Notes under the pieces: model-generated
Told to the model about the DNA's origin: nothing
What the model saw: only the letters and a program-made list of their open reading frames with translations
Databases searched by the model: none
Shown: piece after piece, positions 1,873 through 28,486 of the stretch
Numbering within the stretch: the first letter of the stretch is position 1
Layout of the letters: the number at the start of each line of letters is the position of its first letter
Source of the DNA: Folioceros fuciformis
Lineage: Eukaryota
Assembly: GCA_049999805.1 (NCBI GenBank)
Contig: JBNGIO010006379.1
Location: 670,546 to 703,413, forward strand
Length of the DNA stretch: 32,868 nucleotides
Direction of reading: 5' to 3'
Made by a program: the position numbers and the translations under genes

Positions 1873-3824
1873 TCATGGTCTGATGGGAAAACCGACTGGA
1901 ATGACATAATGCTCTTTCATGGAGGGTTCCCTAACTAGAGTGGAGGAGGAGGAGGAGTCCCTGACAACGGGCGAGTCTCCACTGATGACACTCAACGGAA
2001 TGTCATCGGAGTTGTCTCGGTTGATGATATGGCCAGCGTCGATCATTCCTTGCGCCTGATCCACGGTGAGCAGCAACAGAATGGATGCAGATAGCAGCAT
2101 AACCGCGGCATATAGGAAGGAGTATCTTAGGTCTAATGAAGACTGCAGGAAGAAGGAGACGGCGAGCGAGCCCACCCAGGTCCCAGCCTGGTGCACAAGT
2201 CCGTAGAGGGAAAACATGAGGCCCTGTTGCCGCTGCGGGACACAGTCCAGGAACAGGGTGCGAGAGAAGGACATGAGGGCTCCGGAGCAAAAGCCATAGC
2301 AGGCCGCCATGGCGTAGGCCTCCCACTGGTGGTGCAGCCCAACGGAGTCCTGAGCCGTCACAAACCCTAGGACGGCATAGCACGCCGTGATGGTCATGAC
2401 GGTGAGAATGTTGGCGATGACGACGGTGCTGTCAAAGCCTGCCCAGTGCTGCAGCCAACCGAACAAGGGACACCCCAGCACCGCAGATAGGGACACCACC
2501 AAAGCCATCACCACCGTCTCCCTGTTGCTCATACACAGCGTCTCCCTCCCATACAAGACTGTGGCCTGGAACAGGCTGGTGCTCCCATTGGTGAAGACGA
2601 AGAGCGCAGCCATGATCCAGAATGCGTACTTGAGTCTGCCGCATTCCGTCCGCAGGTACCATAGATTCTGCCACCCCAGCCCCCACTTAAACACGGTGTC
2701 CGGGAAGGGTGGCCCGCGGTAGCACCGCAACCAGGATACCGCGGGGAAGGTCCACAAAGCCCACCAAAGCCCTGCAATGGTGATGGACGCTCGGAAGGCG
2801 AAGGCGTCCGTGAGGCCGGGGATGTATGCCACGCTACCGTAAGCCAAGAGCACGGCCAAAAACCCCCCAACGTTCCCGAATGTGGCTCCTGCGAGCGACA
2901 CCGACCCCACGATGTGCAGCCTGGCCAGCTCCTGTTTCCATGACAGGCACACACATGAGGAGCCGGCAGCCAAATGGCGACGCAGACAAGAAGGAACGCG
3001 GAGGAACTCCAGCAACTAACTACCTGATCCCTGTTGCTGGTGCCCACCATGAGGCTGTGGCGCAGGTCGGGCAGGCCCTTGGTGAGCGGGAGCAGGAAGG
3101 AGTTGTACACGACAATCGCCTGGCCGAAGGCCACATCCGACACGACGAAGAGCAGTACAGCCGTCCACCACAAAGTGGCTTTGTACAGATTGATGGAGAG
3201 CATGACGGCAGCCACGCCTACACCGGTGGACACCGCCAGCAGGCTCTTCTTCCCGGTACCATGGTCGATGAGCGGGCTGAGGGTGACGAATGCCAACAGC
3301 TGGAACACGAGCACCACGCCCAGCAGGACGGTGAGCAGGGAGTAGGGACTGAGCTCGAGCGCGCCCCCGAGACTGACCCGGACGGAGGGCAATTCCGCCA
3401 TGCTTCCCTCGGGGCCCCGGTAGCGGTATCCGTCCCCGAGCACGCACACGGCGCAGTCGGCGGTGACGTTCCCCCCGCACTGCGCCGCAGAGAAGTCGGG
3501 GGACGGGAAGGCTGCGATGTCGTTGCCCTGCTGGTGCAGCGAGGCCCTGGTGGCCAGCCACACGATGAGCAGCGGGTAGAAGACGACGACGACGCCGCAG
3601 CGGTAGGCGGCGGCCCCGAAGTCGTACATGTACCAGCCCCATAGCTCCCAGTCGGTCGTGTCCTTAAAGGACCTGGAGACGGAGGAGGAGTCGGCGTCCA
3701 AGGTGAGCGTGTCGTGGTACTCCGGCGAGTCGCCTGTGTTGGGCCTGGAGTTGTACATTTTGCTGGACGAGGAGGCTCCCGAGATGCGCGAATTGGAAGG
3801 CGTCCCGGACTCGATTTCGGCCAT
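1873..3824 (-). CDS. ATG22: ATG22/UMF1-family major facilitator superfamily transporter, about 619 aa
   Basis: Exon 1 (3024-3824) and exon 2 (1873-2931) join in frame through a 92-nt GT-AG intron (2932-3023). Family-like motifs are LWGWYMYDFG, LSPLIDHG..KK, VVYNSFL and GALMSFSRTLF..CVP..QQG.MFSLYG. There are many hydrophobic segments, and the ATG context is GCCATGG. Confidence 0.8.
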
Positions 3825-5658
3825 GGCCGGGAGAAGGCGAGCTCAATCCCCGCTCGCAGGCGCAGGCTCAGGCTCAGGCTCTGCCTCTGGCCCAGGTCCG
3901 ACCATGTGGTGATCTGCTGGGCGGAGCGCGGAGGGCGGGAACGGGACGGGCGCGTGCTGTAGACTGGAGGAGCGCGCGGGAAGGCAGCATCGCGGACCCG
4001 GGGGCTGGGGCTTTGCCAGCCTCGGCCTCAGGTCCAGGGTGGCAACGGAAATACTTTGTTTTCCCGGAGACGGGTGCGCGGGGGGAGCCAGATCCTGAGG
4101 CCCTGCTTCTGTCCTGCATTCAGGGCCCGGAGTCATCATTCCAGAAGGGCACCACGCAGTACCCTCGTACCGAGAGCGCACAGCAGTCTGCAGCCCGAGT
4201 CTATGGATGATGAGAGGGAGGGAAGGAAGGAAGGAAGCAGGTCCGGTTGGCCAATGCGCCAGAGCTCTTCAGGCGAGGTACAGGACATGGGCGCCTTGTT
4301 TCTGGTGTGCAAAAGTAAAGCTGTTGCAGCCAGTTGTCAGAAGCGTGGTGTACATAGCACACTCATGATGTGAGAGAGGCCCGAGGGGGTGGCTCGTTTG
4401 CAGCGCCGCATTCACCCTTCGGTTTCTCCGAACTGCATACTGTAGTGGATACCATACCCACAGCCGCGCGCTCTTCTGATGATGGACTCGCGCACACTGG
4501 GGGTACAGTTCCCGTTCCCTGTCTTTCCACCCCCTTACTTTCCGGCGGATTGCATTATCCACTCGGGACGATCGTGAAGTGGTGCGGATCCTTTCCCCCC
4601 TGTAACAAACAACAGTGGAAGGAAGGACGGAACGATCATGAGTTCACAGGTAGATATCTACCTGCGCCGTTGTTCGCCATTGCCATAGCACTTTCCTTTA
4701 CCCTCGTCCGGCGGCCCAGACTCCCTGCTGCAGCACAACGCAACGTCCGACAGAAAGTACCATCAGGGCCGGCTGGAAAGGACCAGCCACCCTGCAGTGC
4801 CACACAATCGGCTGCCATTCAGAGGATGCAGCGGCCGAAACATAGGAACAAGCACCTATGGTCCACATGGCCGCACGTCTTCCGTTGCTACTGACGATTT
4901 TCGTCTTCCACCTGGCTGCAGCATGTAAGTCTGCCATGCATCTTTGCCTCTTGAAACTCTTCCCTCCAAATTTGACCTCAACATCGCGTGGCCTAAAACA
5001 AACACGCTCCAAATGTAACTTACGAGGACAACCCCAGGCCATGTCTGGTGAGCCCTCCGCTCATCCGCAACTGTCTAACGAGCGGGCACCCATCATGCTG
5101 GGTGATGAGCAGCTTTCCACATGCCTCTGGCATGTAACGGTCCTCTGCAGCGCACGCCACTTATCAAAGGAACCCTACCTGATGGACGCTTTGTGAGCGA
5201 GGCACTAGAGTTACAGCCTCTGCAAATACCTGGCCCAGCCCTTCTCTCACCATTTCAGCTCAGCACACACACTTTGCTGCTGGTGAGCTTGCAGGAACAC
5301 GAACGGAAAAAAGATCCAAAATAATGCCAAGATTTCGCCATAGCAACGCAAAAAGAAAGCCACCACACAAATTCGGACAACAGCTATGATACCAGCTACT
5401 CTACACGTTGCTGCTGCAAGGCAGCTGTGATTCCTTCAGACTCGTTGCTGGCCTGGAGAGTTCCAAACTAAACAGGGTTAGAGCAAGCTGCATCCACAGA
5501 GAGTAATCTGCTGGCTGAACCCGCTAGAGGTGGGGTGATCGGTCAAAACCAAAAAAGATTTACAAATGTCTAGGAGCTGCCAGATCCCCACAAGAGACGG
5601 GTCCCAACTACCTCACTATCTACACACAATGAACTCCTGTGAAAAAAGAGTACGCCCT

Positions 5659-9600: not shown

Positions 9601-11895
9601 CTACAATCTTTTGCACATGTGCGAGTAACCTGCTTTCTTCAGTTCAGTGCGCAAAAATCTGAGTAGATTAACGATCATGATGTTGTACTGACGTTTGTGG
9701 TCACCCACAGCAAATGTATGTATCTGTTGCTTGTGCTCGATCCAGCTCTGGCCGGGCTTCTTGGTTGCGATAACACTCTGTCCGGACTGATCAACCCAAA
9801 ATGCAGACTCCCTCATTCCAGCATCAGCATATATGCTGGACATGAGCACGTACGCTGCTGCATGCCTGGGGTCCAAATCCATGACAGCATCGAAGGCACG
9901 CTTTGCGAGCACCACATTGCAATGCTTTCGACAAGCACTCAGCAGGCACAACCACACTGCCAGGTCAGGTGGCATTGGCATTTGCGAGACCATCTGTGCT
10001 GCACTGCTCAAGAGTCCTGCACGGCCCACCAGGTCGATCACACACGCATAATGATCCACCTCTGCAAAAATGCCATGATCTCTCGTCATGCTCTGGAAGT
10101 ATGCGAGGCCCCTGTCCACCATGCCAGCATGACTACATGCAGACAGGAGGGCTGTGAATGTGAGTGCGTTAGGCCTCACACCTGCTGTCTTCATGTGCTC
10201 GAAGCTTGCCATGCTCATCTTACTGTCACCCAGTCGTGCGTACCCACAGATCAGTGCTGTCCAGGGCACCACGTCTGGCTGGTGCAACGAGTCAAACACT
10301 CGTTGAGCATCCACCATGCTCCCACATTTGCCATATGCATGGATGAGGCTGGTTGCCATAGAGCTTTTGGATTCCAATCCATTGTTTACGATACCATGGT
10401 GGACTTGCGCACACACATCTAGCGCTCCTACACAGCTGCATGCTTCTAGCACTGACACAAATGTTGACTCATTCGACTTCACACCTTCTGCTTGCATCTG
10501 CCCATAGGCTTGGAGAGCCTTATCTCCTTGCTCCTGGTGCGCATAACCTGCAATCATGGCTGTCCATGACACCACATCGCGGTGTGAAAGCCTTTCAAAC
10601 ACCTGTTCCGCATCCTTGATGCTCCCGCATTTTGCGTACATGCTAACCAAAGAGTTGGCGACAAAGATGTCTCGTTCAAAGCCGCATGAACTTGCCCCAG
10701 CATGGATTTTCCTGCCCGTCTGCAGTGCCCTCACCTTCACATATTGCCCATCCACCATCATGCTTTCCTCCTTCCCTGCAAGGCTGCTGCAAGCTTGGAG
10801 AGCACTGACAAATGTCCTTGCGTTTGGCCTGACCCCGTCATTTTGCATCCTCACAAAGAGCTCCAGGGCTATGTCTCCTTGGTCCTGCTGGGCATTTGCT
10901 GCTATCATGGCAGTCCATGTCACAACATCACGCTGGGACAATTTTTCGAACACATGTTCCGCGTCCTTGATGCTCCCACACTTGGCGTACACGCTGACTA
11001 AAGTGTTGCCAACGAAGATATCGGTCTCAAATCCCCGAACTCTGGCGCTAGCATGTATTTCTCGTCCCTTCTGGAGGGATGACACCTTCAAAAACTGCCC
11101 ATCCACAAATGTGCAGTCCTCTGTATCCGCAAGACTGCCGCATGCTTGCAGAGCACTGACAAATGTTCTTGCTGTGGGCGTGATCCCTTCCAGTTGCATT
11201 CGCCGATATATTTCCAAAGCCTCAGCTCCTTGCTCCTGCTGTGCATGTGCCGTAAGTATTGCATTCCACGACACTACATCACGCTGGCACATTGCATCAA
11301 ACACCTGCTGAGCATCCTTGACGCTCCCACACTTGGCATACATGTTAACCAACGTGCTGCTAACAAACAAATCCGATCCGAACCCAAGTTTGAGAGCAAG
11401 AGCATGAATTTGCCTGCCTTGCTCAAGGTCTTCCAACTTGCTGCAGGCTTTCAGTAAGCTGACAAACGTATACCTGTTGGGCTGCACGCCTTCTCTTTTC
11501 ATCTGCTCAAAGAATGACAAAGCATCCTGGCACAGCCCCCTGTCGATATAACCTGAGATGATGGCTGTCCAAGACAAAATGCTTGGGTTCGGCAGCCTGT
11601 TGAATAGCTGGATCCCATCTTCAAGGCCCCCGCACTTCACCAACGTGGCCACGACAACGTCGCACACCCCTCTGTTAGTTTCCAGCCCATGTGCAACCAG
11701 CTGAGCATGAACCAACTTGGCCTGCGCGAGGCTTTTGCGTTTCATACACACCTGCAAAAGACTCCTGTACGTCTGAATAGAGGGCTTACTTCCCTGCTGG
11801 TCCCCTCGGAGCAGGGCAAACAGCTCCGTGCCCGCCCATGCCCAGGAGTCTAAGTCATGGGCAGATGAAGACGATGTTGTGCAACGGAAGGCCAT
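9601..11895 (-). CDS. Intronless PLS-class pentatricopeptide repeat protein, E+ subclass (organellar RNA-editing factor type)
   Basis: Repeated P-L-S motifs (DVVSWNAIL, TFVSALQAC, TLVNMYAKCGS), E motifs (HYACVIDLVGRAG, VWLCLLSACRKH) and a PG box (KKPGQSWIE..IHTFAVGD). It ends shortly after LKKAGY with no HxE/CxxC deaminase site. The first ATG is at 11895; the track start at 11901 is GTG. Confidence 0.95.
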   Translation of the reverse strand: MAFRCTTSSSSAHDLDSWAWAGTELFALLRGDQQGSKPSIQTYRSLLQVCMKRKSLAQAKLVHAQLVAHGLETNRGVCDVVVATLVKCGGLEDGIQLFNRLPNPSILSWTAIISGYIDRGLCQDALSFFEQMKREGVQPNRYTFVSLLKACSKLEDLEQGRQIHALALKLGFGSDLFVSSTLVNMYAKCGSVKDAQQVFDAMCQRDVVSWNAILTAHAQQEQGAEALEIYRRMQLEGITPTARTFVSALQACGSLADTEDCTFVDGQFLKVSSLQKGREIHASARVRGFETDIFVGNTLVSVYAKCGSIKDAEHVFEKLSQRDVVTWTAMIAANAQQDQGDIALELFVRMQNDGVRPNARTFVSALQACSSLAGKEESMMVDGQYVKVRALQTGRKIHAGASSCGFERDIFVANSLVSMYAKCGSIKDAEQVFERLSHRDVVSWTAMIAGYAHQEQGDKALQAYGQMQAEGVKSNESTFVSVLEACSCVGALDVCAQVHHGIVNNGLESKSSMATSLIHAYGKCGSMVDAQRVFDSLHQPDVVPWTALICGYARLGDSKMSMASFEHMKTAGVRPNALTFTALLSACSHAGMVDRGLAYFQSMTRDHGIFAEVDHYACVIDLVGRAGLLSSAAQMVSQMPMPPDLAVWLCLLSACRKHCNVVLAKRAFDAVMDLDPRHAAAYVLMSSIYADAGMRESAFWVDQSGQSVIATKKPGQSWIEHKQQIHTFAVGDHKRQYNIMIVNLLRFLRTELKKAGYSHMCKRL

Positions 11896-12452
11896 CCCCA
11901 CACCACACTAGCATCCCTGACAACGTGGGTTGTGCCATTGGAGTGTGGGCTGAGGTAGATGCCAGGATCCCCAGCTGCAAAATGGGGTAGCATCCCAACG
12001 CATGTGAGCCACAGGCGCACGTATGCCTCCAAAGGCCCCCCTTTGGAAGTCTTCCCTACATGCTCCCACACCATGCATGGCAGATGCGAGAAGAGGCGCC
12101 GGCCGCTCCATCATGCTTGGACTCGTGTTGCTCATTCACCCGGATTGTTCGATTAAAAAACCACACACCTAACCCCGAAAGCTGCAGACCTGGTCCCTGC
12201 GAGCTGGAATACTGAACGGAAAAGGAATAGCAAGTGGGCAAAAGCCTGGTCACTAGGAAGATACTCATTGGCCCCTCCCCAGTGAGGCACAGCACCTTAT
12301 TCCCGGGCCACTTATTGACTTGCCTATGCAAAGGGATTGAGAACTTGAACTCCCGCCTTCAGCAGTTTAGCACATCTCGCGTCCAGAGTATCCGGCGCCG
12401 CGCAATCCGAGCCCAGAAAGCAATTTTCGGACAGCAGGGATACGAGAGATCC

Positions 12453-14581: not shown

Positions 14582-17166
14582 TCACACAACTCGGTAGCTA
14601 TCAACCACCAGCCGGGTGGGCCCAGCGAATCTTGCAACCGTTCCAGTTTGCGTGTTCTTCACGGTGCCGACCTGAATTCAAACGATACAGATTCAGCAAT
14701 ATGCCACCGACAAAGTTGTCAACGGTGTCAAACAAATTTTAAATTGCCAAATGTCCTTTGTTTTACTATGCGTGTAGGCAACGGGCGCATACCTTGATAT
14801 CACAGAACGTCTTAGTGGCAGAGAATTTCACATCAATCGGGAAGAAGGCCGACGGATCTGCTGGTGGCACCACAAACTCCATGGTCCCACTATAGTTGTG
14901 GTGAAGTTTACCGACAGGAAGATGGTCAGATGTGTAACACACAGCAAAAGCGGAAGAAACTGGAATCACATAGATATGGTCCCTTACTTCCGATTCGTAT
15001 TATCAATCAAGGTGATGGACCATTCAAGGAGGGACTTTCGTGCATCATACCTGCCAGGACAAGATCCATCACTACAAAAAAGACATCGCTAATGTTTAGG
15101 GGATTTCACGTTTCTTCACTTACATCCATTCTCCATCAACCTGATTCATGCTTGGCGGATCCCGCAAAGGTGGCAAGGGTATGCTGATTACAACATTTTG
15201 CAGATCAAATGCTTTTGAGGCTTCATACTCAATGTTGATGTAACATTCTCCGCCGGAGACAGAGGGCCAGCAATTTACTGGAGACCACAATCCCACATCA
15301 GAGGTAGAGCTCACATCATGCAGTTCAGCTTTCTTGGCGCCAGGCTCAGAGCATTCAACACACAATTATGATCTCTAATGTTCAACAGTGAAACCCAACA
15401 GCCAAGCACTTACTGCCAAGAGGAACAAGAGAGTCCTGCTTGCTTTGCATTCGCCACTTCAATATGCCTGAGGGGCTACCAGTTGGAAAAGGTCTGTTTG
15501 GCTCCTTCAAGCCGAGTATATTCTCGGCTACATACAGGCCCTTGTCAATTAGGGGATGGGTCTTGAACTGGAAATTTCTGTTTTCACCCGTTTCAATCTG
15601 CAAAACTTGTTTCAAAGTGTCAGACCACCACACTTCTTTCACCCTGGATTGCATGGCATGCATCCTCAGGTTAGCTTTAGCAACCAGACAGAAAAAACCC
15701 TCCATGGGCCAAAAAAAAAAGTTTTTCATGCAAACCAGACCTGAACTTGTAGGAAGGCATCTTCTTGTCTTTGAACAACTAACGCCATTGCACCCTGCAC
15801 TTCAAATTTCTCTAGACCACCGTCCTTCTTCAAAGTGACGTCAAGCCTCTCTTCCACAGTAATAGTGATAGGATCTGTAGGGACAAAAGTTGTCTGCAAA
15901 GGCCCAGGTGCCGCATGCACATCCTCCACAATCACTTCACCTTCCGCCTTCAAGGATTCTAAGAACTGGTTTGCCTTCTGTGACTTGCCAAGCTTCATAC
16001 CAGCTCCCTTGGCCACAGCGGCGACAGGTTGTGTTGACCGTCCTGTAATGATGAAAGATCAGCTTATTAGGATGCACCAAGCACACCTAACCGGCATTTC
16101 TCCCTGAACAATATTAGAGGTTCCGCTAAAGGGAGAGGAGTAAGTGCAAACAACCTTTTGTTTTTACGAAGGGGTCTGGATCTAGGGCTGAGAGGAATCC
16201 CGAACTGCTCCCCAGATCACTTAAGTCACTGATGCCATTATCAAACCTGATGGCTCCCGAAGAGTTAACAGACGCAAAACCCCCTTTCAATTCCCGTTGC
16301 CTGTCACTCTGCAAGACCTGCATACACAATCATCCACTTCCTTAGCTTGGGCAACTTCTCTACAGTTTCAAAGCATCCTACAACGCAAAGCCAGCTAGGC
16401 AAAATCTCACAAGAAGTAAACGAAAAATCGAATTCAATACCTTGTTCTTATCAATCTCACTAGCCTTCCGCTTCATCACATCCTTAGTGTCGTTGATCTT
16501 GCTCTGGATAATCAGCTTGTGCAGTCTTTCCTCATGACTCTCCATTTCTGTGTATTGTTTAACTTGCGCCACAGTGACATTTTCCTTGTGGCCCAAAGAA
16601 ATGACCTCGTCAAAGGCAAAGATCAGCGTGAAGGCAACGGTGCAGATCTCCTCTTCGTCAAGTGTCGGGCAGTACTCCGGAACCTAATCCAGTAAAAAAC
16701 AAACCGAATTGAGCAGGGCATGACACCGCGTTCGCAAGACTGCTTCATCCCCGACGAGCGATAAAGATCGATTAAAACGATACCAGCTTCGACAAGAGCC
16801 TGAGCGTCTCCAAATCCTCCAGTATGTTACTCTGTTTGTTGGTCACAAGGAGGAGATACAAATTCTCCATCGGCTGATACACGTAGCGAACGTTCTCAGT
16901 CTCCACAAAAGTATGCTGCTTTCCACTCCCAACGAGCTTCGGGAAGGCAGCAAGCAGCCCTTCGATCCGTATCCTTGGCATGTCTACGAACTGCCGGGAA
17001 ACAAGAGCTGGCGCAACAGAAATAGAAGTCAGCATAGTCCGACCACCCTTACGTCAATTTGCCAAGACCTGACGGCCATAGATCCAGAGCAGAACCTGAA
17101 ACCAGTGGATCCAGATCGCGCACCTTTCCCGGTCTTGCTGATCACTGAAGCCGCTAGGACCACCAT
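14582..17166 (-). CDS. delta-COP: Coatomer subunit delta (delta-COP)
   Basis: About 10 GT-AG exons give [97 protein letters not shown] and [11 protein letters not shown], ending LVVDSYRVV* (TGA at 14582-14584). Confidence 0.96.
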
Positions 17167-17770
17167 GATGGCAGGCCGGAGAGCTCCTCGTGGGTGACGG
17201 CTCGATCTGCCGCACGGTTCTCCCTTCTACAAGCACCTTGCACGGCCTTGGTGTGTTTGTCCTCCTACATCTATGTTCCGCAACTAGACGCTCCTCTGCC
17301 CACTGGACACATTTCGTAACTTAATCGTGCAGTTTGGCTTTTGTATTTTTCACTTGTTTGCCCTAAGCGCTTACAAATGCCGCCCGTAAGGTAAGTCACT
17401 GGTAGACAACTTGTGCATGCTAATCTACATGCTAGAGTGCGTGTTAACGCATCCGATCCCTGAGATGCACTAAATGTTGGTAGCTGCCAAAAAACGGGGG
17501 GCCGGGCCAAGGCGTAGAATGCTGCGGGAATAGGAAGAGAGGAAATATGTATGCTGATTCATACAAATCTTTACGTCCAGGGCTACCTGAAAACCGTGAT
17601 CAGGTGCCAAAAACATCGATCAAGGCTCAACGAGTGTGCCAGTCCAGACATGGCTGATTGTCTACCGAGGATGCAAATTTTACAAAGGCACTGAAGCGTT
17701 GCGGCCAGCCCGATGAATTGCCTGCTGCAGGCTGGATGAGGATTGTGTGAAAGAACTGAAGAAGAGGCCA

Positions 17771-18397
17771 CTAGTGCTCCAAGTGGAAAACATATTCGGT
17801 CAGGTTTTGCAAGTGACCCTTGTCCTTCTTCTGCTGCGAAGGAGGTGCCACCCGGGTAACACAGAGCATCCTAGTGGCGGGATCCAGCACCCAGCCGTGC
17901 TGCGCGGTGAAGGCCGCCGTGTCGTTCTCCGACAGCCCGAGGAACCTGGCAGCGTCCGCAATGCTGATGGTGGAGTAGGCCGTGGACAGGAGCTGGAAAA
18001 TTTTGCGCGAGTACTCCTCGGCCACAGCGCAAACCACAGACTGCACATCCGGACTCCAATTAAAGCCGCGCAGCGCTTCGTGCACCCCAGCGTGATCCCT
18101 GATCCACATGCACTGCCCGATCCTCCATGCGGCCACCACTTCCGGCTGATTCTGCTTCACCTGCGCCGGAATCTGCTTCCACACGAACCTGGCCGAGTCC
18201 AGGTCCTGCACAGCCACATGAGCAAGGATGTGTACTGCATAAGGCCAGTCCTGCGGCTTGACGCGCCCCGCTGCCAGACCCTCCAACTCCAAGGTGTCGC
18301 AGATGGCCGCCAGGTCCTTGAATCGCCTAGCTTGGATGGTCTCGTGGATCGCGTTGAGGCTCATGTCTGCGCCCGATGACGCGGCGGGCACACCCAT
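17771..18397 (-). CDS. CSN8: COP9 signalosome subunit 8 (intronless)
   Basis: 208-aa ORF with DWPYAVHILAH..LDSARFVWKQIP..PEVVAAWRIGQCMW..LLSTAYSTIS..GWVLD and the characteristic end LTEYVFHLEH*. Confidence 0.95.
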   Translation of the reverse strand: MGVPAASSGADMSLNAIHETIQARRFKDLAAICDTLELEGLAAGRVKPQDWPYAVHILAHVAVQDLDSARFVWKQIPAQVKQNQPEVVAAWRIGQCMWIRDHAGVHEALRGFNWSPDVQSVVCAVAEEYSRKIFQLLSTAYSTISIADAARFLGLSENDTAAFTAQHGWVLDPATRMLCVTRVAPPSQQKKDKGHLQNLTEYVFHLEH

Positions 18398-18593
18398 GGC
18401 GTTCCTCGACTATGTTCCCGTCATGTAAAGTTGCCGTTTCCGGAGACAGGTCTAGGTGAACATTTTACAATTTAGGGCTAGGGCACATATGTACAAAGCC
18501 CTGTTGCCCGATTGCTTGATTCTCTTTTCGCCGGCCACAGGCTATCAGTCTCTGCGACTACTGGGTGCGGGGCGCGGCCGCGCTTCGGGAATC
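18398..18593. promoter_or_regulatory. Very compact divergent promoter region between CSN8 and RPL32
   Basis: Only 196 bp separate the two start codons. A telo-box-like TTTAGGGCTAGGG lies at about 18471-18483. Confidence 0.6.
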
Positions 18594-19285
18594 ATGGTGA
18601 CTCCTTTAGTGAAGCGGGTGGTGGTGAAGAAGCGCGTGAAGAAGTTCAAGCGCATGCAGTCTGATCGCAAGATCTCTGTGAAGGTGAGTTCCTCGAACCC
18701 AGGGTTTAAGAGCACGCGGCTTGAGTTTTTCCCCTTCGCTGGCTGTGGTGTGGTGATGGATTGGGTTTGCGAGGCGTCCTGCTTTTTCGGAGTATGATAT
18801 GGTTTGCTGAGGCGTATCGGGTTGGGGACTCAGGTGGTTGGTTGATTGATAACTGGCTGTGCTATCCAGGAGAACTGGAGACGGCCGAAGGGTATTGATT
18901 CCCGCGTGAGGAGAAAGTTCAAGGGAACGACTTTGATGCCTAACATCGGTTACGGCTCAAACAAGAAGACCCGACATGTGCTTCCCAGCGGGTTTGTCAA
19001 GTTCCTTGTGCACAACGTGAAGGAGCTGGAGCTGCTGTTGATGCACAACAGGTGTGTCACGTATGTTGTGAAGCATTTTTGTATCATTTTCTTTGCGTGT
19101 GTTGCAAAGGGAGTAGGGTTTATTCGGGAATTTACACTGTCCTTCTTACGTGCAGGAAGTACAGTGCAGAAATTGCCCACAACGTGTCAACTGCGAAAAG
19201 GAAGGCCATTGTCGAAAGGGCTCAGCAGTTGAACGTCGCCGTGACCAATGCCTCTGCTCGTCTTCGCAGCCAGGAGGATGAGTAG
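18594..19285 (+). CDS. RPL32: 60S ribosomal protein L32 (eL32)
   Basis: Exons 18594-18683, 18870-19051, 19156-19285 give [88 protein letters not shown]. Confidence 0.98.
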
Positions 19286-19432
19286 CCAATTTTTGTTTGT
19301 TAGGTCTTTCAGCCCGTTTCTGTGGAAACAGTGTTGCGTATTTTTTTTTAGTGGTGGCAGGGTCCTGTCCTCTCGCCATCTCTTTGAAACGAGGCATCGT
19401 GTTTTGCTTTCTCTAAGCAGTGTCTCTCCTCA

Positions 19433-19610
19433 TTGCTTGACCGTGTAGCCCCTTGAGTCTTTCCAAAACCTGTTTGCTTGACCGTGTAGCCCCTTGAGTC
19501 TTCGCAAAACCTGATTGCAAAACCTGATTGCTTGACCGTGNNNNNNNNNNTTGAGTCTTCGCAAAACCTGATTGCAAAACCTGATTGCTTGACCGTGGAG
19601 CCCCTTGAGT
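19433..19610. repeat. Tandem repeat of about 40-55 bp (TGCTTGACCGTGTAGCCCCTTGAGTCTTCGCAAAACCTGAT...), interrupted by a gap at 19541-19550
   Basis: At least 4 units are visible. The N-run indicates the array is not fully assembled. Confidence 0.9.
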
Positions 19611-20373
19611 ACGCGGGCCTTCCAAGACACCGGGTTATCCGGTCCCTCAACTTCACTGTGGCTTTTACTCCTCACTGGGTGCTGCACGTGGCCATCCTCT
19701 TCTCGCAGAGCTGCTGGAGTGATTTTTTTAAGAGAGTTGAGAAGTCCCCTCACTTAGAGTGGGAACGAAGATTTTGTTCGTCTTTTGAAGCTACGCGTGT
19801 AACAAAATAGCTTCCTCGTCTCTCCTGAAGGCAGCTGAGTTTCTGACCACAAGCACGAGGAAGCATCACGATCGTCCAGGGCGGCCTCCTCACGTTAGCG
19901 ACAGGCCATGTAAATTCACAGAGTTGAGGCTAAGTGAGGCACGAGGCTGGTTACCTGGGCAACATTCTGATCAGTTAATTGAGTGCCTGCCTCGCTGTTC
20001 TCTAGAGTCTAGAGCAGTCCCCGGCCCGGAGAGACCGAGCATCGCTAAAGACATGGGAGAGACTCGCGGGCATAGCTGACAACATGGAGAAAGGGTAACC
20101 TGGAAATCTTGCACGCTTTATATATATGCGAGAAGACACGTACAAAAGGTTTCAGCGCACATTACAGCATAGCTGTCTGCAACGATGGGCTAAGGCTTCA
20201 TCTCTGCGTGAATTGGTGACAGGCTTCCGGAGGCCCGGGCCATTCTCTGCACACTTCCTTTTCAAAACAATGGCCCACTTTGCAGCTTAGAGCCTTGCTT
20301 GATTCCAGATGTCCCTGACCAGAAGCCTCCGGATGATGAAGCCATTCAACCCATGCCTGCAGCAGCAGGCGCT

Positions 20374-20569
20374 TCATTTGCAGTCGCACTTGTTGGCATC
20401 GCCACTGCACCTGACGCAGTCGGGGTCTCCACCGGCCGCGGCCAGGACCAAGTTCCTGTGATCAAACAGAGGATTCAATCCATCAGAACGCTGGGCCAGC
20501 ACAAGTGTGCAAACGGAGAGACAGTCGAAGAAAGAGAAGGCGGAGGTCGTACACGTTGCCGGAGGCCAT
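20374..20569 (-). CDS. Small Cys-rich peptide, copy A: MASGNVNLVLAAAGGDPDCVRCSGDANKCDCK (32 aa)
   Basis: Exon 1 20553-20569 (17 nt), intron GTACGA..CACAG 20456-20552, exon 2 20374-20455. TATAAAA on the minus strand at 20674-20680. Paralogous to three other copies. Confidence 0.85.
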
Positions 20570-21539
20570 GATCGCTGAGAAGAGTCGGGGAGGAGAGCAA
20601 AGAGCGATGTAATGAAGCAGAAGGCGATGGAAGCGGAAGAGCAGTTGATGAGAAATGGTCTGCCTGCCAGGCCTTTTATAGCAGGCCGGGAGCGGTTTTG
20701 CCCCTACCTGGCTGGCGCAACCTGCTGGGCTAGCTGTTGGCGGTGGCGAAGGCACGGCCCAGCCTGTGGCGGGGTTGGTGGTGGTCCATCTGATTCCACC
20801 AGCTACCAGGCCCCAAGAATCAGGAGCAGGACGCCGCAGCGGGGCAGCCACACACGCCATGCAGCCGTGCTGGCAAGAGGCCGAGCCGCCGGACCCCGAG
20901 CCCGGGCCCACAAGCTACCCTGCGCAAGGAATCTCTTGTGATCAGACTGGTGCTGAGGAATCTGGGAGGCAGAGTTCTTCCCGAGCCCGAAATCGGCCCA
21001 GCTGCTGCAGTGCCCATCATCAACGTACAACGGCTTCTACAGTTCCCTTGGAACCGAGCTCAACCTGAAGATCTAGGTACAGTTCGCGCTACCGGTAAAC
21101 GGAAGAACGTACCAACCTTGGGCGCTTCAGCTTCAGCGACAGGTATGGGACAACTTTGTGTACAAGATTGTGGCCTACAGCTAGCTGCGAAGAAATTAGG
21201 ATTCTTGTCTGGATTTCGAGCCTCGTCTGTCTACATGACACAGTGTCCATTGCAGCAACCCAATTCGAGCACGGACAGTCTTGAAGGCTTGTCGGTGCAG
21301 AGACACCCTCCGTCTTCATCCAATATCCTACACACCAGTTCAAACAGCTGACGTACCTTGCTTGCAAGTTGGAATTGTGGCTAACCCATAACCATTTGCA
21401 ACTGGCCCAGGAATATATAGTTTGAATTCCTACTCCCTCTTCTTTTATTCGCACCACAAGTTCTAGACTTGAGCGCTGGGTTGTAATTCTATAACATTTC
21501 CAACGTGTGTGACGTTTGTCGTCCATGCCCATGCCGTCG

Positions 21540-21810
21540 TGCACGGATAAGAAAGAATCCTGTCCAGGGGACGTCTTCAAAAGCCGCTCTGCTTTTGCTA
21601 CACCTCCCATGTCCATGGGCCGCACCAAGCTTGCGTGCACATCAAGGAGTATACCGTATGACTTGACTACCACGCCAGCCAGCGAGGTATCCATCTCTCT
21701 GCCTGGAATTGCACAACTGATCCTGCCGGCGAGCTTCCAAGAGGGCATCACCGTCGTACATGTGCATGTATGTAATAGTGCCTTGAAAATGTTGGGTACA
21801 GACTAACTGC
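21540..21810 (-). pseudogene. Possible highly degenerate PPR fragment
   Basis: The minus-strand frame reads IFKALLHTCT..LAGRISCAI..EMDTSLAGVVVKSYG..GGVAKAERLLKTSPGQDSF, loosely echoing L-S motif spacing. The resemblance is weak. Confidence 0.25.
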
Positions 21811-22486
21811 TCTCCGAGAATCTATGCTGGGACAGTGGGAATCCAGCCAATGGGCAGGTGCAGTGGGTGCAACCTTGAAGGGAGCCTATTTTATCTATTA
21901 ACGAGTGATGCACCGTCAGCTAATTGGAACGAGAAAATCATGTATGTGCAGACCAGCAAGCTCGAGTCTGGGTAGCGTGGCCCAACGTCCCTCTGTTGTG
22001 TGACTGCAATGACAGTGTCCAGGTCCGTTGCTCTGAGGGAGGGTTGTCGGGATGTCGACAGCAGACCCACAGCGTATTTTCAGCTACAAGAGCATAGGCC
22101 AATGCGTTTGCAAGAAAAGATCGTGAGGGAAGTTCCCGAATTCCCACCGAGTCCTCAAAATCTTTCGATCCGTTTGTGAAGACAACGTAGATAGGTATGC
22201 GCCGCTTTATAACAGAGAGCCAAAACGGCTTTTACGAGCTACAACAACATGACATCCCAGCCCATCTCCTACCCGCTATGCGAGACTGGAGACGGCTTGG
22301 ATTCCAGACGACTCGAGCGAGACAAGCCTTTTGAAAGATGGACTCAGGCCGTTTCCGATTGGGGTACGTTTCCACACGAGAGGCTCCATTTCAGCCCCAA
22401 GTTGCAAGCAGGATGCGGAAGATGGAATTTGAGTGAAAACCGCCTCCACGGGGAGGCCAGCCTGCTTGCTTGCGCTTTGGCGCACT

Positions 22487-22700
22487 TCATTTGCAGTCGC
22501 ACTTGTTGGTATCGCCGTTGCACTTGCTGCAGTCGGGGTCGACGGCGCCAGCCGCCAGGACCAAGCTCACGTTCCTGCACTCACTCACACCACAGCCAAC
22601 GCTGGATCAGCGCTCAGGCGCCTGAACAAGAAAAGCCAAGGAAAGGAAAGCCGAGTCGCAAGTGTTGCAGGGGAACCACGTACACGTCTCCGGAGGCCAT
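22487..22700 (-). CDS. Small Cys-rich peptide, copy B: MASGDVNVSLVLAAGAVDPDCSKCNGDTNKCDCK (34 aa)
   Basis: Exon 1 22684-22700 (17 nt), intron GTACGT..GTGCAG 22575-22683, exon 2 22487-22574. TATAAA on the minus strand at 22818-22823. GCCATGG start context. Confidence 0.85.
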
Positions 22701-23512
22701 GGCTGAGGCTGAGCGAGGCGAAGGCCGAAGCTTGGATCAGAGAAGAGGAAGGGAGCTCGGATCGCAGAAGGCCAAGCAAGCTGGAGTGTGTGGGACGAGC
22801 CGAGTCCCTGCTGGGCCTTTATACTCCCCAGCCCAGTAGAGGAGAGGCCCGCAATTGGCCGAGCCCAGCCTGGCCCCACCTAGCTGGGCCCCTCAGGCTC
22901 CCCCTGGGATGTGTAGGCGGGCGAGGCCGACGGGTCTCTGTCGTCCCTATGGCTTCCCAACTTGCAACTGCCACCGACCTCCTGCCATTGCCGTTGCCGT
23001 TGCAGTTGTTTCCACCGCCCACCTCCTGGCCCCTGGAAGCTCGAGAATGGGATGGAAGATTCCACACCAGCACGGACACGAGCATGAGCACGGGCATGGG
23101 CATGGGCATGGGCACCGGAAGTCCTTCTGCTTCCTCAGGAGAGGGCCCAGGTCGGATGTCGATTCCACCTTCTCAGAGTTCAGAGGCTAGGTCACTCCGT
23201 GCTCCAAATGAATCGGGACATGTCATGAGCCATGCCGCATCAAAGGTGCTATTTCATCTATACAGGGAAAACAAGTACCCTGGGACCGAGGACCGGATCT
23301 GCATCCAACTGGCCCAAGAACCCGCGGCCAGCGGAAAGCTCCACTGGATATTTATGTGTCCGAGGAGGTACTCAGACTCTTTTTGCCTTGCCTTGAGTTG
23401 TCCAGCAATGTTTTTGTGCTTCGATCCGTTCTTCGTGGAGGACATGCATGATGAAGTTAGGGTCCACATGTGCCTGGAAAGGCTTCACTAATTGGAAGGG
23501 CCTAGAATTGCC

Positions 23513-23727
23513 GAGAGAATTGCAAGCTCACCTTGTCAATGAGCTTGTGAGGAGAATTGCANNNNNNNNNNAGCTCACCTTGTCAATGAGCTTGTGAGGA
23601 GAATTGCAAGCTCACCTTCTTCACCCTCTCAATGAGCTTGTGAAGAGAATTGCAAGCTCACCTTCTTCACCCTCTCAATGAGCTTGTGAAGAGAATTGCA
23701 AGCTTACCTTCTCAATGAGCTTGTGAA
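23513..23727. repeat. Tandem repeat of about 38-46 bp (GAGAATTGCAAGCTCACCTT...TCAATGAGCTTGTGA), with a gap at 23562-23571
   Basis: At least 5 units are visible around the N-run. Confidence 0.9.
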
Positions 23728-24425
23728 TCCTCCATGTTATCTATGTAATGTTGAAATAACTTTGTGATTAAGCTTGTCACCTTGCTTCATTTTTCTCTAT
23801 CTTTATAATGACAAGTCTGAGTTTAATCTACCATAGTTCAAGTTGGGTAAGCACAATTGATGTTGCATTCCAATAACATATCAAACTTGTAAAGACTCTT
23901 CTTCAAGGTCTCTAGAAGTTCTATATATCATACCTAAAAAACTTCATATCTAGAAAACTTTGTGGCAGCTGTTCCAATCATACTTATCTTTGCCTCTAGT
24001 ATTTTCAACCAGACGAGTAGAGTGTTTCCAACCACAAAGCATAGGCCAATGCATTTGCAAGAAAGGAAACATGCGAAGAAAGTTCCGAATCCGGACCGAG
24101 TCAACCTGGTATATTCAGGCCTGCCATTCGCTACTAGCAAAACATGAGCCGCTTTATAACACGTAGCCAAAACGGCACGAAATGGTCTTCACATATTTAA
24201 CGAGTTACGACAAACATGTCTCCCCATCTCCTATCCGAGAACGGGAATGACTCAAGCGAGACATGCCTTCCGCAAAACCGAGGAAGTTTGGGTTTCCTTT
24301 CTACACGCACAGCTCCTCCATTACAGCAGCAAGTTGCAAGCAGGACGCGGAATCAGAAGATGGAACGTGAGTTGAAATCCGCCTCCATGGGGAAGCCTGC
24401 TAGCTTGCTTGCGCATGGGCGCACT

Positions 24426-24636
24426 TCATTTGCAGTCGCACTTGTTGGTATCGCCGTTGCACTTGCTGCAGTCGGGGTCGACGGCGCCAGCCGCCAGGAC
24501 CAAGCACACGTTCCTGCACTCACTCACACCATAGCCAACACTGGATCAGTGCTCAAGCGCCTGAGAAAGAAAAGACAAGGGAAGGAAAGCCGAGCAACTG
24601 TTGGAAGGTGAGCACGTACGCGTTTCCGGAGGCCAT
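24426..24636 (-). CDS. Small Cys-rich peptide, copy C: MASGNANVCLVLAAGAVDPDCSKCNGDTNKCDCK (34 aa)
   Basis: Exon 1 24620-24636 (17 nt), intron GTACGT..GTGCAG 24514-24619, exon 2 24426-24513. TATAAA on the minus strand at 24761-24766. Confidence 0.85.
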
Positions 24637-26340
24637 GGATGGTGCTGGGCAGAAAGGCTGATCGAAGGAGAAGACGAAAGCGGGGGAGGCGAAGGCAAGG
24701 AGGATCACAGAAGGCCAAGGAAGCTTGAAAGTGTGAGGAGAGGTGAGTGCCTGCTGCGCCTTTATACTCCCCAGCCGAGGCCAGGCCAGGAATTGGCCGA
24801 GCTCTGGCCCCTGAGAGGTGGGGGCGGGCGGAAGCCGACGGGTCTCTGTCGTCAGGATGGTTTCCCAACCTGCAACTGCCACGGACCTCCTGACGTTGCC
24901 GATGTTGTACAGCGGCGATTAGTGGATCCGGATTGGCGCCGCTTCTGCACCTGAGCTACCACCACCCATCTCCTCGCTCGCGCTTGAGAGGCTGGGGTTG
25001 AAGAATCTGATTCCACACCCGCACCCGCACCGACACCGGCTGTGATACGGCGGTCCCGCAGTCCTGCTGCTTCCCTTGAGGAGAGGAGCCTGATTCCATC
25101 CCAGCTTGCTAAATTTGAAACCTGGCTGACACCTGTGCTCCAGATGGCGTGTGGATATCTCCTGGTGTTGCCGCTAGCAGCTCCCCTGCTTGCTGGCTCC
25201 CACTTCACGTGGGCGATGCACATTCTGTCTGCTTGGGTCAGGGCAGGGTCAGGGTCATGGCAGCAAGTATCAATTGCACGCGTCAGTCCGTTTGCAGCTG
25301 GGGATCTTGGAAGGTTCAGGAATCATCTGCCCCTGGCCAGTAACTATGCAACGTTGTAGCAGACTGGTGCAGAGTGTCCCACTGCCGTCAGCAGCTCGCC
25401 AACATGTTGCTCCTGTACCAAGTTAGCTTCTAATCCCCTTTCCAGATATCATTGCTCTCGTCATCATCGTGCAGTTGCCGGCTTCTCTCGATTCCCCGAC
25501 CCCAATTTCAAACACGCATGTGTACTGATGGACAGTAGTGTGTACGCTTTCGATCTGCCTCAAGAAGCTCAGGAAACTTTGACTGCAAGACGCAGCCAAG
25601 TGAAAAGAACGTGTGACAGTACGTCTGTCTACGCAACCTCATCCAGTAGACGTAGAACCGAAACCTCCCATGGCCGTAGATCCATTGAGAGCAAAACCCT
25701 TACGGATGATGCTGTGGCGCAAGCAGCAACAAGGCTTCCACCTCTGGAAGCATTAACTTGCCAACACACACTGACATTAATCGACATGGCTCCCAGAATT
25801 CGATAAGGTGTACGTGGACCCACTCTAGTCCGAAGAGCGCTAGCGAGGTGGACAGCCCCAGAATCTGTATTTACACTGGTAGACAAACAGATGGTAGATT
25901 GATCGGCATACGTTCCGGAGGCCACGGACTGGCCCAGGACACAGGACTTGCACACTCCCTCCTTGTGTGGAGCACGCAGCCGGGCGCTCGCCCCGAGCAA
26001 TCGCCCGGCTAAACGCCAGTTTCGCCCTAGAGGCGCAACCTTTGTAGGTTTCGCCATCTGAAAATGGGGCAGCACAGTGGGACCGAGCCCGTGCCGGCGT
26101 CCTTGACCCACGAGGCCCACAGCTACCTCCACGACCGCGACACGCCCCAGCGCCAACATGGACTCGCCACTGGCTGAATTCGCTATCCGTTTCGCCGCGC
26201 CGGCGCATCCACCCTCGCCAGGGCTATAAAGCCACACAGCAACTTGCCTCCTCCAAAGCAAGCACTCACTCACTCGCCCTCTCGAGCTCTCGCTGTCTTC
26301 AGGCTTTCCGATCGTCCGCGCGCTCCCCTTCCGGCAACCA

Positions 26341-26573
26341 ATGGCCTCTGCTATGTTGTGAGCTTCTGTTTCTGCCTCTGCGTCTTCTCCTCGTCTTCTG
26401 CCTTTCTCCTACCGTTCCTGGCTACGTTCTTGGAATTCGCTCTGTTCGACTTTATTTCCTGATTTTTGCTCCTCCTCGTCATGTCGTGCAGCCGGAACGT
26501 ACTGGCCGCCATGTCCGGCGACCCCGACTGCAGCAAGTGCAACGACGACGCCGACAAGTGCGACTGCAAGTGA
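26341..26573 (+). CDS. Small Cys-rich peptide, copy D: MASAMFRNVLAAMSGDPDCSKCNDDADKCDCK (32 aa)
   Basis: Exon 1 26341-26357 (17 nt), pyrimidine-rich intron GTGAGC..GTGCAG 26358-26491, exon 2 26492-26573. TATAAA at 26225-26230. AATAAA at about 26650. Confidence 0.85.
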
Positions 26574-26948
26574 TGTGCTCCAGCTGCCGCAGCTGGCGAG
26601 CAGGGAGAGGGAGAAGGGAGCAATGTGTACTGCGTAGCTGACATGTGCAAAATAAAACGCGTGCCAGGAGGCGGGCTCCCGGCACGCAGCTGCTGCCGTC
26701 GGATTGCCATTGTGTCGCTGAATTCCTTGTAATACCAAAAGCAATCTATCAGCTCCCACTATCGTGTATCGCATCTCACGTCGGCGAAGAGCATTTCCAC
26801 TTGGCTCCGTTGTCCACGAGGGAGTCCGCATATTCCCCCTTCAGACGCACATCAACGTATTCAAAACCTTTTCTCCGTTTTTTGCTGACCGTCGTTCGGT
26901 CCATGAGGTCTTCTGATTCTCTCAACTCTTGCCGCTTTGGTTCGGACC

Positions 26949-27923
26949 ATGGCGTCGGTCGTACCCCTCGTGAAGTTGCCTGCCAGTGCAAGCTCCTCGT
27001 TTCTTCGTGAATCGAGGCCGCGGCCACGCACGTTTGCCGAAATCACCGTCTGCTCGCAGTCTTCGTTTGCCGCGCGGTAAGTCTGCATTTTCTTTCGCAT
27101 TCTCTTGCGCACACCATCACCCTCGCGCGTCAAGGTTGGTGATGGCTTGAGATGATGGGAATCCGCAGGCTCGTTTCCGGCCGAGGATGCCAGGCTAGCA
27201 TTGGTCATGACCACGGTTCAGTTGTGAATCAAAGACCTGGTATGCTGCATGAGAAGGTACCATCGCCTCAGTCGTCTATTTGCTATACATGGGAGTTGGT
27301 TGGTAGAGCTGGAAAGTCGCAGTGTGCCAGCCATACGTGGGTTTGCTGTTGCTCACGTCAGGATGGCACCGAGCCTCGAGGTGATGTTGTCACACAGCTT
27401 CGAATTTCGGTGGAGAGGACTTGGATTGCCTCCCCATCTGCCTGCACCGCACTGAAACCCTAGGCGGTGGAATTTGTGGCAGACACAGAGCAGAGTGTAG
27501 AGACGGAGAAACCTGGGGTGAAACTCGCACTTGCGGTCCTGCGGTTTTACAAAGGTATGCAGACTCCTTGCTTTGCTCAACTGTGTCTTCAATACGACAG
27601 TGTCCCTCGTGTTTCTTATGAAGCAAGTGCGTTGGCAGGTGAAATCTCCCCATACCTGCCAGGGAGCTGCCGTTATATCCCCACATGCAGTGTGTATGCA
27701 CAGGATGCATTCAAGAGGTATGGAGTTGTCAAAGGAACAATCTTGACACTTTGGCGCCTTGCTCGCTGCAATCCCCTAGGTGAGACTTCGTGGCAATCGC
27801 TGACATGCTGCCTTGTGTCTCATACGATGAGCTGAGTTGAGAGTCATGATGCGTGCTCTTGCAGGCGGCACTGGCTTCGATCCCCCGAGGTGGTTTGATG
27901 AAGAGAGGCCTCCTCAAGTGTAA
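26949..27923 (+). CDS. yidD: YidD/UPF0161 membrane-protein insertion efficiency factor homologue with a putative plastid transit peptide
   Basis: Exons 26949-27076, 27169-27239, 27483-27554, 27639-27779, 27865-27923 give MASVVPLVKLPASASSSFLRESR.. then GVKLALAVLRFYKGEISPYLPGSCRYIPTCSVYAQDAFKRYGVVKGTILTLWRLARCNPLGGTGFDPPRWF. Confidence 0.9.
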
Positions 27924-28486
27924 CAGAAGATGCCACTTGACTTTCACAAACTGACCCGAAACTCTGGTGGCCACCATCGAAACGGCAGATCTGAGCAGAA
28001 AAAACACGGGAACAAGGTAGTTTCCTGGTTCTGGAAGTGCGAAACTTATCTGTACGTTAGTGTGCTCCCCACTACTGGTGCTCACTAACTGTCCTTGCGT
28101 TCACAGACTCCCCGGTCGATAGCACTTGGGACAGCAGTCAGCTAAAACAGACTTGCTTTACTCCATCAAGTCACACAGATCAGTTACGAACTGTTCTGTG
28201 CCAAAATTCTCTTAGAGCAGTATGCTACTCCTCCCGACATACGGGTGCTCCTGGAAAGGGCATGCGAATAGGATGCCAACTGGACAGGAAAAACACGCTC
28301 GTCTTCTGTACATAAAGCCATCCAACCCCTACTTCACTCTTGCAGCTCAATGAGAAGCACTTTCTTCGCGAGCCAAGGGCTCAGCATCAGCACGGTAGTT
28401 TATGACACTGCCCACCTCGTACGTGTCTTATCGGTACAACCACAGCATGATTTACGTTGCGCTTCACAATCGGGTACTCTAATCCA

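Follow-up and report, generated by a model that had tools for sequence, protein, structure and literature searches.

A stretch of 32,868 bases from the genome of Folioceros fuciformis (contig JBNGIO010006379.1, positions 670,546 to 703,413; hereafter the window, with positions counted from its first base) carries a tandem cluster of four paralogous micro-genes, here named A to D, each of which encodes a cysteine-rich peptide of 32-34 residues. We consider it very probable that the four loci are real, expressed and spliced genes, and the land-plant family that they form is apparently undescribed and unannotated. Four such paralogues, with A, B and C on the minus strand and D on the plus strand, had been proposed from the letters of the window alone (the sequence-only reading), and this was borne out by a regular-expression search and by gene models. 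The search for C-D-C-K-stop over all 32,868 bases returned exactly four sites, whose stop codons end at 20374(-), 22487(-), 24426(-) and 26573(+), with the cluster spanning approximately 6 kb, while the gene models came from a script that looked upstream for the common ATGGCCTC start and for frame-compatible AG acceptors. The resulting spliced translations (32 residues for A and D, 34 for B and C) equal the four peptides of the sequence-only reading letter for letter, and its description of the gene structure was confirmed as well: the coding part of exon 1 measures 17 nt in all four genes, which places the intron in phase 2; all introns are GT-AG and 97-134 nt long (donor GTACG in A, B and C and GTGAG in D, acceptor cAG throughout); and the stop codon directly follows CDCK in every gene. 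A TATAAA element had been placed 105-125 nt upstream of the ATG, which is correct for A, B and D, while the distance in C is slightly outside this range.

Evidence for transcription and splicing comes from three public runs that belong to two studies (X1, X2 and X3, whose records mark RNA by guess only); their contigs, as assembled, were compared with positions 20200-26900. All four predicted junctions were found to the base in these contigs (A in X1 and X2, B in X2, C in X1, and D in X1, X2 and X3), and every gene-model joint shows GT..AG on its gene's own strand. The features of the four loci are as follows:

20675..20680, minus strand: TATAAA of gene A, 111 nt upstream of the ATG
20553..20569, minus strand: coding part of gene A exon 1, 17 nt, ATG at 20569 (model and contigs)
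20456..20552, minus strand: intron of gene A, 97 nt; joint 20454/20552 (cut +1) in one X1 and one X2 contig
20374..20455, minus strand: coding part of gene A exon 2 with stop codon (model and contigs)
Reaching at least 20200, minus strand: 3' untranslated region (UTR) of gene A; an X1 contig covers 20200-20445 and continues past the examined stretch
22818..22823, minus strand: TATAAA of gene B, 123 nt upstream of the ATG
22684..22700, minus strand: coding part of gene B exon 1, 17 nt, ATG at 22700 (model and contigs)
22575..22683, minus strand: intron of gene B, 109 nt; joint 22573/22683 (cut +1) in one X2 contig, short side 78 letters
22487..22574, minus strand: coding part of gene B exon 2 with stop codon (model and contigs)
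22190..22486, minus strand: 3' UTR of gene B; poly(A) site near 22190, from an X1 contig with a 27-T loose end
24761..24766, minus strand: TATAAA of gene C, 130 nt upstream of the ATG
24620..24636, minus strand: coding part of gene C exon 1, 17 nt, ATG at 24636 (model and contigs)
24514..24619, minus strand: intron of gene C, 106 nt; joint 24512/24619 (cut +1) in one X1 contig, short side 36 letters
24426..24513, minus strand: coding part of gene C exon 2 with stop codon (regular expression and gene model)
26225..26230, plus strand: TATAAA of gene D, 116 nt upstream of the ATG
26341..26357, plus strand: coding part of gene D exon 1, 17 nt (model and contigs)
26358..26491, plus strand: intron of gene D, 134 nt; joint 26357/26492 in two X1, one X2 and one X3 contigs
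26492..26573, plus strand: coding part of gene D exon 2 with stop codon (model and contigs)
Covered to 26709 (X2) and beyond 26900 (X1), plus strand: 3' UTR of gene D (contigs)

The loose end at 22190, a poly(T) run on the plus strand, represents a poly(A) tail on the strand of gene B and lies approximately 20 nt downstream of ATAAA, an element conserved between B and C. Furthermore, one 457-nt X2 contig is confined to the two exons of gene B (22760 to 22195 minus the intron). We infer that the contigs derive from cDNA, which best explains the four distinct forms lacking an intron, the poly(A) end and the contig made solely of spliced mRNA; that the intron-less forms are retrocopies present in DNA runs would be far-fetched. 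The X1 contigs over the four genes have a mean word depth of approximately 17,000-28,000, which, as a poor measure of expression with no comparator gene, gives a weak hint of very high transcript abundance and was not used for ranking the genes. X1 cover is absent from 10 of the 30 bins of the compared stretch, from which no inference was drawn, and one additional joint, 26356/26482 (TG..CA, depth 4), was discounted as an assembly artefact. It should be noted that the organism labels of X1, X2 and X3 all differ, and that the micro-gene contigs of X2 and X3 are few, at least 99% like the window and of depth 3-5. This likeness could reflect the same or a very close species labelled otherwise, or carry-over of a very abundant transcript.

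The X1 contigs bearing the coding junctions of A and C extend upstream past the respective TATAAA boxes (20553-21320 and 24619-24974, both minus strand), which means that there are longer 5' isoforms or a second upstream promoter. The long contig of gene C reaches 24974, and that of gene A runs up to 20918 and is then spliced into a further exon across the following intron:

20919..21115, minus strand: extra upstream intron of gene A in a longer 5' isoform, 197 nt, GT..AG; joint 20918/21116 in one X1 contig, short side 30 letters

In this long form of gene A, an in-frame upstream ATG would give rise to an N-terminally extended product of 129 residues, which is not conserved in C.

Conservation among the four genes follows their exons. 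In pairwise blastn comparisons of the oriented loci, from 900 nt upstream to 500 nt downstream, A matched B/C and D matched the other genes only over exon 2 (67-87 nt, 79-88% identity), with the start of the coding region (exon 1) also alignable between A and B/C. The earlier observation that introns and flanks of A, D and B/C do not align by eye is therefore confirmed. B and C are alignable with each other over approximately 650 nt at 77% identity and are, by this comparison, a younger tandem duplicate. A tract of 222 nt with 92% identity (22434-22655 versus 24373-24594) is centred on exon 2, and the exon-2 coding sequences of B and C are one base apart; this tract inside the 77% duplication, together with the one-base difference, suggests gene conversion between the two tandem paralogues. 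The likeness of the paralogues is not due to chance, since tblastn searches of the window with the exon-2 peptides gave cross-paralogue E-values of approximately 1e-11, compared to 0.08 for the next best match in 32.9 kb. These searches revealed no further or degenerate copies within the window, leaving four copies only, and no transposon domain flanks the cluster among the 7 flanking open reading frames (ORFs) examined with Pfam.

The contrast between exons and flanks indicates a clear constraint on the exons, and this constraint appears to act at the protein level because frame, intron phase, start and stop are conserved, not because of the ratio of non-synonymous to synonymous substitution rates (dN/dS). 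The ATG, the intron phase and the position of the stop are conserved in all four genes, and the sole length difference between the coding sequences (CDSs) amounts to 6 nt, i.e., two whole codons. There is no upstream ATG within 130 nt 5' of any of the starts, the micro-ORF is the first ORF of the TATA-proximal transcripts, and the start context is [AC]NNATGG, with a purine at -3 in D only. Moreover, the G+C content at third codon positions (GC3) of the micro-ORFs is 0.84-0.91, compared to 0.57 for the PPR gene of the same window, and the ORFs further downstream in B, with 48 and 37 codons, are shortened to 9 and 31 codons in C. With an ORF of fewer than 100 codons, a transcript of its own and conservation that follows the frame, each gene has the features of the class of micropeptides encoded by small ORFs (sORFs). 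Pairwise dN/dS is 0.33-0.40 over the whole CDS, a weak measure with approximately 20 synonymous sites. Within the 17-codon core, 42-51 of the 51 nucleotides are identical and synonymous positions are nearly fixed, to which codon bias or gene conversion may contribute. Thus, the purifying selection put forward in the sequence-only reading is backed by the exon/flank contrast and by frame conservation, but not by dN/dS, which lacks significance in the core.

Relatives outside the window are few. The alignment of the four sequences (A1) comprises in-frame stretches of 36-41 aa, including intron-derived residues. A profile of the four sequences yielded two matches among approximately 5.8 billion proteins (word-indexed search, 10 candidates scored), and an exhaustive search of 1.84 billion representatives returned the same two plus one spurious match, P0003 (831 aa), which covers profile positions 3-14 only, i.e., intron-derived columns, and was rejected. 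The two outside homologues are unnamed ORFs from other assemblies that are read through from probable intron sequence. Both keep DPDC, all four cysteines, one Asp, both Lys and the stop after C-x-C-K; they differ by an extra Leu before CxC in one and by Asn in place of the Asp inside CxC in the other. As a qualification of the claimed invariance, VLAA, the Asp inside CDC and the x6 spacing of the cysteines do not vary between the four genes of the window, but do so in the two outside homologues. No named or annotated protein with the core motif was found in the searches of approximately 5.8 and 1.8 billion proteins, in agreement with the prediction of an unannotated family; since predicted-protein libraries rarely contain such short ORFs, this absence reflects missing annotation and not rarity.

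Other searches gave no additional relatives. A pattern scan of metagenomes produced 500 pattern matches, none of which was confirmed, and a metagenome scan with a degenerate 54-nt motif gave no exact matches. The best matches in a protein atlas (nematode hypothetical and CAP-related clusters, 0.88-0.90, 123-135 shared features) are within the range of shuffled sequences and were rejected. Rfam and tRNA scans of the window had no matches. A text search of the literature for seven- and six-residue motif strings retrieved no paper, although such peptides could be present in supplementary sORF lists, and shorter strings led to unrelated items, e.g., abbreviations of pyruvate decarboxylase, Pfs25 and a Daphnia metallothionein. 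Likewise, at the level of titles and abstracts, the literature on metal-binding sORF peptides and on bryophyte and hornwort metallothioneins contained no such family.

The predicted peptides start with Met-Ala-Ser, followed by a short LVLAA-like hydrophobic stretch and the C-terminal core DPDC-x2-C-x2-D-x2-K-C-x-C-K-stop. All four share the pattern C-x2-C-x6-C-x-C, with the invariant cysteines within the 13 C-terminal residues and without a spacer, and the invariant residues are these four Cys plus the surrounding Asp, Pro and Lys; in the gene C peptide, residue 9 is a further Cys, which is not conserved. With a pI of 4.3-4.6 and 4-6 Asp per chain, the peptides are acidic, and their masses are 3.2-3.4 kDa. 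Signal peptides typically comprise a hydrophobic core of approximately 8-15 residues after a positively charged start. Here, the segment before the core is short (15-17 residues), the longest uncharged run comprises 7-10 residues, and basic residues are absent ahead of the core in A, B and C; for these reasons, a signal peptide is, by inspection, unlikely.

From these data, the following function can be proposed. The four nuclear genes, their copy number raised by tandem duplication, would each produce a spliced, polyadenylated mRNA of approximately 0.3-0.5 kb, in which the first ATG opens the ORF of 32-34 codons; that these micro-ORFs are translated is likely. The product could be a cytosolic, probably abundant thiolate peptide, whose Asp-flanked CxxC and CxC pairs would act as chelators of soft or borderline metal ions (Cu(I), Zn(II), Cd(II)), thereby serving metal buffering or detoxification in the fashion of a metallothionein. 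Our confidence in a cytosolic location and in metal binding is tentative and falls somewhat short of even. Metal binding is proposed because the invariant residues are the four Cys together with Asp, Pro and Lys, and because CxxC and CxC are listed among the metal-binding motifs of metallothioneins in the excerpted text of PMC6212650. Since each chain has four thiols only and a conserved hydrophobic stretch, binding would probably take place in an oligomer joined through this N-terminal stretch, and the tandem amplification fits a stoichiometric buffer. In its widest form, which we regard as doubtful, this proposal would make the peptides an undescribed class of gene-encoded plant metal ligands, i.e., single-cluster, four-thiol, oligomeric Cu(I)/Zn/Cd buffers of 3.2-3.4 kDa, possibly the smallest plant metallothionein-like proteins known, which would join classical metallothioneins and phytochelatins as a third thiol system. 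In this view, they would be confined to one lineage of non-seed land plants and would escape standard annotation, since a 17-nt first coding exon and an ORF of 32-34 codons are below the limits of gene finders.

Several observations weigh against a family of expressed, metallothionein-like metal ligands. At the level of the genes, the identity of the runs as RNA is guessed from their records, and the synonymous excess in the 17-codon core is not significant (binomial P 0.15-0.65). At the level of the peptides, the Cys content of 11.8-14.7% in a single 4-Cys cluster and the hydrophobic stretch speak against the proposal, as metallothioneins, to our knowledge, carry no conserved hydrophobic N-terminal segment. 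Pfam hmmscan with the four exon-2 peptides, which at 26-28 aa give low sensitivity, returned no family at E<=10, including the metallothionein entries (presumably Metallothio_2, PF01439, and Metallothio_PEC, PF02068, for plants). Furthermore, AlphaFold2 on alignment A1 predicted neither secondary structure nor a fold (mean pLDDT 54.8), a result that would be expected for an apo peptide, yet lends no support. The four promoters have no common k-mer of 7 nt or more besides TATAAA and no metal-response element (MRE) in common. Together they contain one match to the animal-type MRE (TGCRCNC) and one GTAC copper-response core, and they show no enrichment of MRE, GTAC or ACGTG.

Three other explanations have to be considered. 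Rather unlikely, in our estimate, is a microprotein partner or redox peptide, i.e., a translated, cytosolic or organellar peptide that docks on a larger protein or complex as a Zn- or Fe-S-binding subunit or regulator, or that acts as a CxxC thiol-disulfide peptide, and that is not a bulk buffer. The gene-level evidence applies equally to such a peptide, its LVLAA-like stretch resembles an interaction surface more than any metallothionein feature, four cysteines are what one structural Zn or one shared Fe-S cluster requires, and the Cys content is below that of metallothioneins. However, no partner is indicated, and the neighbouring genes (for an ATG22-like transporter, a PPR protein and a member of the CSN8/PSMD8/eIF3K family) suggest none; the profile of the four sequences matched no solved small subunit, or any other sequence of known structure (Protein Data Bank), at E<=10; and a stoichiometric buffer accounts better than a regulator for the tandem amplification and for a transcript depth that may be very high.

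It is improbable that the peptides are secreted, with the 15-17 residues before the core serving as an unusually short leader and the acidic core of 17 residues being released as a signal or antimicrobial peptide with two disulfides. In favour of this are the variable N-terminus and the invariant C-terminal core, an arrangement usual for peptide precursors, as well as the even number of cysteines and the small residues (G/A/S) before DPDC. By inspection, however, a segment of 15-17 residues is shorter than almost all eukaryotic signal peptides, its uncharged run is limited to 7-10 residues, and the N-terminal region is neutral or acidic in A, B and C. Finally, abundant short non-coding RNAs with an untranslated ORF, whose exons are conserved through gene conversion or an RNA-level function, would agree with the near-equal conservation of synonymous and non-synonymous core sites, the non-significant dN/dS and the 92% tract shared by B and C, but are very improbable given that lineages with non-coding parts that can no longer be aligned still share ATG, phase, stop position and whole-codon indels, that the ORF begins at the first ATG in a shared context (with its purine in D only), that GC3 bias is strong, that the two outside homologues differ in residues yet keep all Cys and the stop, and that the window contains no Rfam family.

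Besides the micro-genes, the window contains three recognizable protein-coding loci:

1873-3842, minus strand: ATG22-like transporter of the major facilitator superfamily, read as two ORFs that overlap and differ in frame (profile positions 1-163 and 191-481)
9601-11901, minus strand: intron-less PPR gene of the PLS class, 766 aa, with a C-terminal E motif (domain search)
17771-18409, minus strand: ORF of the CSN8/PSMD8/eIF3K family (domain E-value 1.6e-29), an ordinary housekeeping neighbour

The different frames of the ATG22-like ORF pair point to an intron or a frameshift, and as a query it found one homologue with 34% identity (8000 candidates scored). The best named relatives of the PPR protein are from a fern, lycophytes and gymnosperms with at most 43% identity, and the best unnamed ones reach 47%; this points to a land plant as the source, probably a non-seed plant. 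Repeats are found in and around the cluster. Between B and C (23515-23727), a 46-nt tandem repeat of approximately 3-4 copies is broken by an assembly gap of 10 Ns (23563-23572); at 23077-23115, there is a (GCATGG)n microsatellite, where an X1 contig of low depth terminates in a loose end of 255 nt that does not resemble the window; and the sequence immediately upstream of the cluster (19428-19597) contains short repeats, both direct and in tandem, with a 41-nt unit and one exact 41-nt pair 57 nt apart.

Should translation and metal binding be borne out, the peptides would represent a new, minimal type of thiol ligand in plant metal homeostasis, and very abundant transcripts of non-seed plants would prove capable of encoding proteins overlooked by all annotation pipelines. 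Regardless of what the peptides do, the genes provide a clean test case, with validated junctions, for the detection of split micro-ORFs, as a coding first exon of 17 nt is beyond the reach of ORF scanning. Moreover, the peptides are short enough for synthesis, which allows for a direct and cheap test of the metal-binding hypothesis. We regard the result as a solid micropeptide family rather than a new principle.

Among known systems, plant metallothioneins are the obvious comparison. The excerpted text of PMC6212650 defines them by two Cys-rich regions with a spacer between them and gives CxCxxxCxCxxCxC as their conserved C-terminal motif. Neither the two regions with a spacer, characteristic of types 1-3, nor this motif is present in the four peptides, all of which have C-x2-C-x6-C-x-C instead. 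The exclusion of metallothionein types 1-4 by the sequence-only reading is therefore upheld by the features examined (Cys regions, motif and Pfam), and judged by sequence, the peptides lack every defining feature of plant metallothioneins that was considered. Nevertheless, they resemble these proteins in small size, in the arrangement of CxxC and CxC, in the multi-copy state, in a possible cytosolic location and the probable lack of a signal peptide, and in a C-x-C-K ending like that of many type 1 and 2 metallothioneins, while differing in their conserved hydrophobic N-terminal stretch and in a length of 32-34 aa, about half of the 45-85 aa of plant metallothioneins. The peptide may thus act in the manner of a metallothionein, but its classification among them is not justified, and descent from a metallothionein half-domain may be considered.

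IRON MAN/FEP peptides lack a Cys cluster and are defined by a stretch of Asp and by a consensus at the C-terminus that ends in YDYAPAA. Although the present peptides are similar to them as short, Asp-rich and probably non-secreted plant peptides from tiny, often unannotated genes, the Asp stretch and the YDYAPAA end are absent, and the C-terminus is K-C-D-C-K-stop in all four genes, in line with the reported lack of the IRON MAN motif. IRON MAN is the only plant small-peptide family tied to metal homeostasis in the excerpted text of a 2025 review (PMC11951405). Secreted plant Cys-rich peptides (defensin-like/LCR, RALF and EPF/EPFL) are alike in size, in an even number of cysteines and in a conserved C-terminal core after a variable N-terminus; however, they have a full signal peptide, 4-8 or more cysteines with other spacings, and mature forms that are usually basic, whereas the present peptides are acidic.

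Cu(I) is handled by the MxCxxC motif of Atx1-type proteins and by CxC in domain III of CCS and in the C-termini of COPT/Ctr transporters. These chaperones and transporters use the same CxxC and CxC thiol pairs, which provides a working analogy with no homology implied, although, unlike in the present peptides, these motifs are located in folded domains of at least 70 aa or in transporter tails. Comparable size and a single Cys cluster are features of the minimal copper metallothioneins of fungi, such as those of Neurospora crassa (approximately 26 aa, 7 Cys) and Magnaporthe (MMT1, approximately 22 aa, 6 Cys). In the fungal proteins, the 6-7 Cys are arranged in arrays rich in CxC and a hydrophobic segment is lacking, yet they provide the precedent that a peptide of approximately 25-30 residues can be a functional metallothionein.

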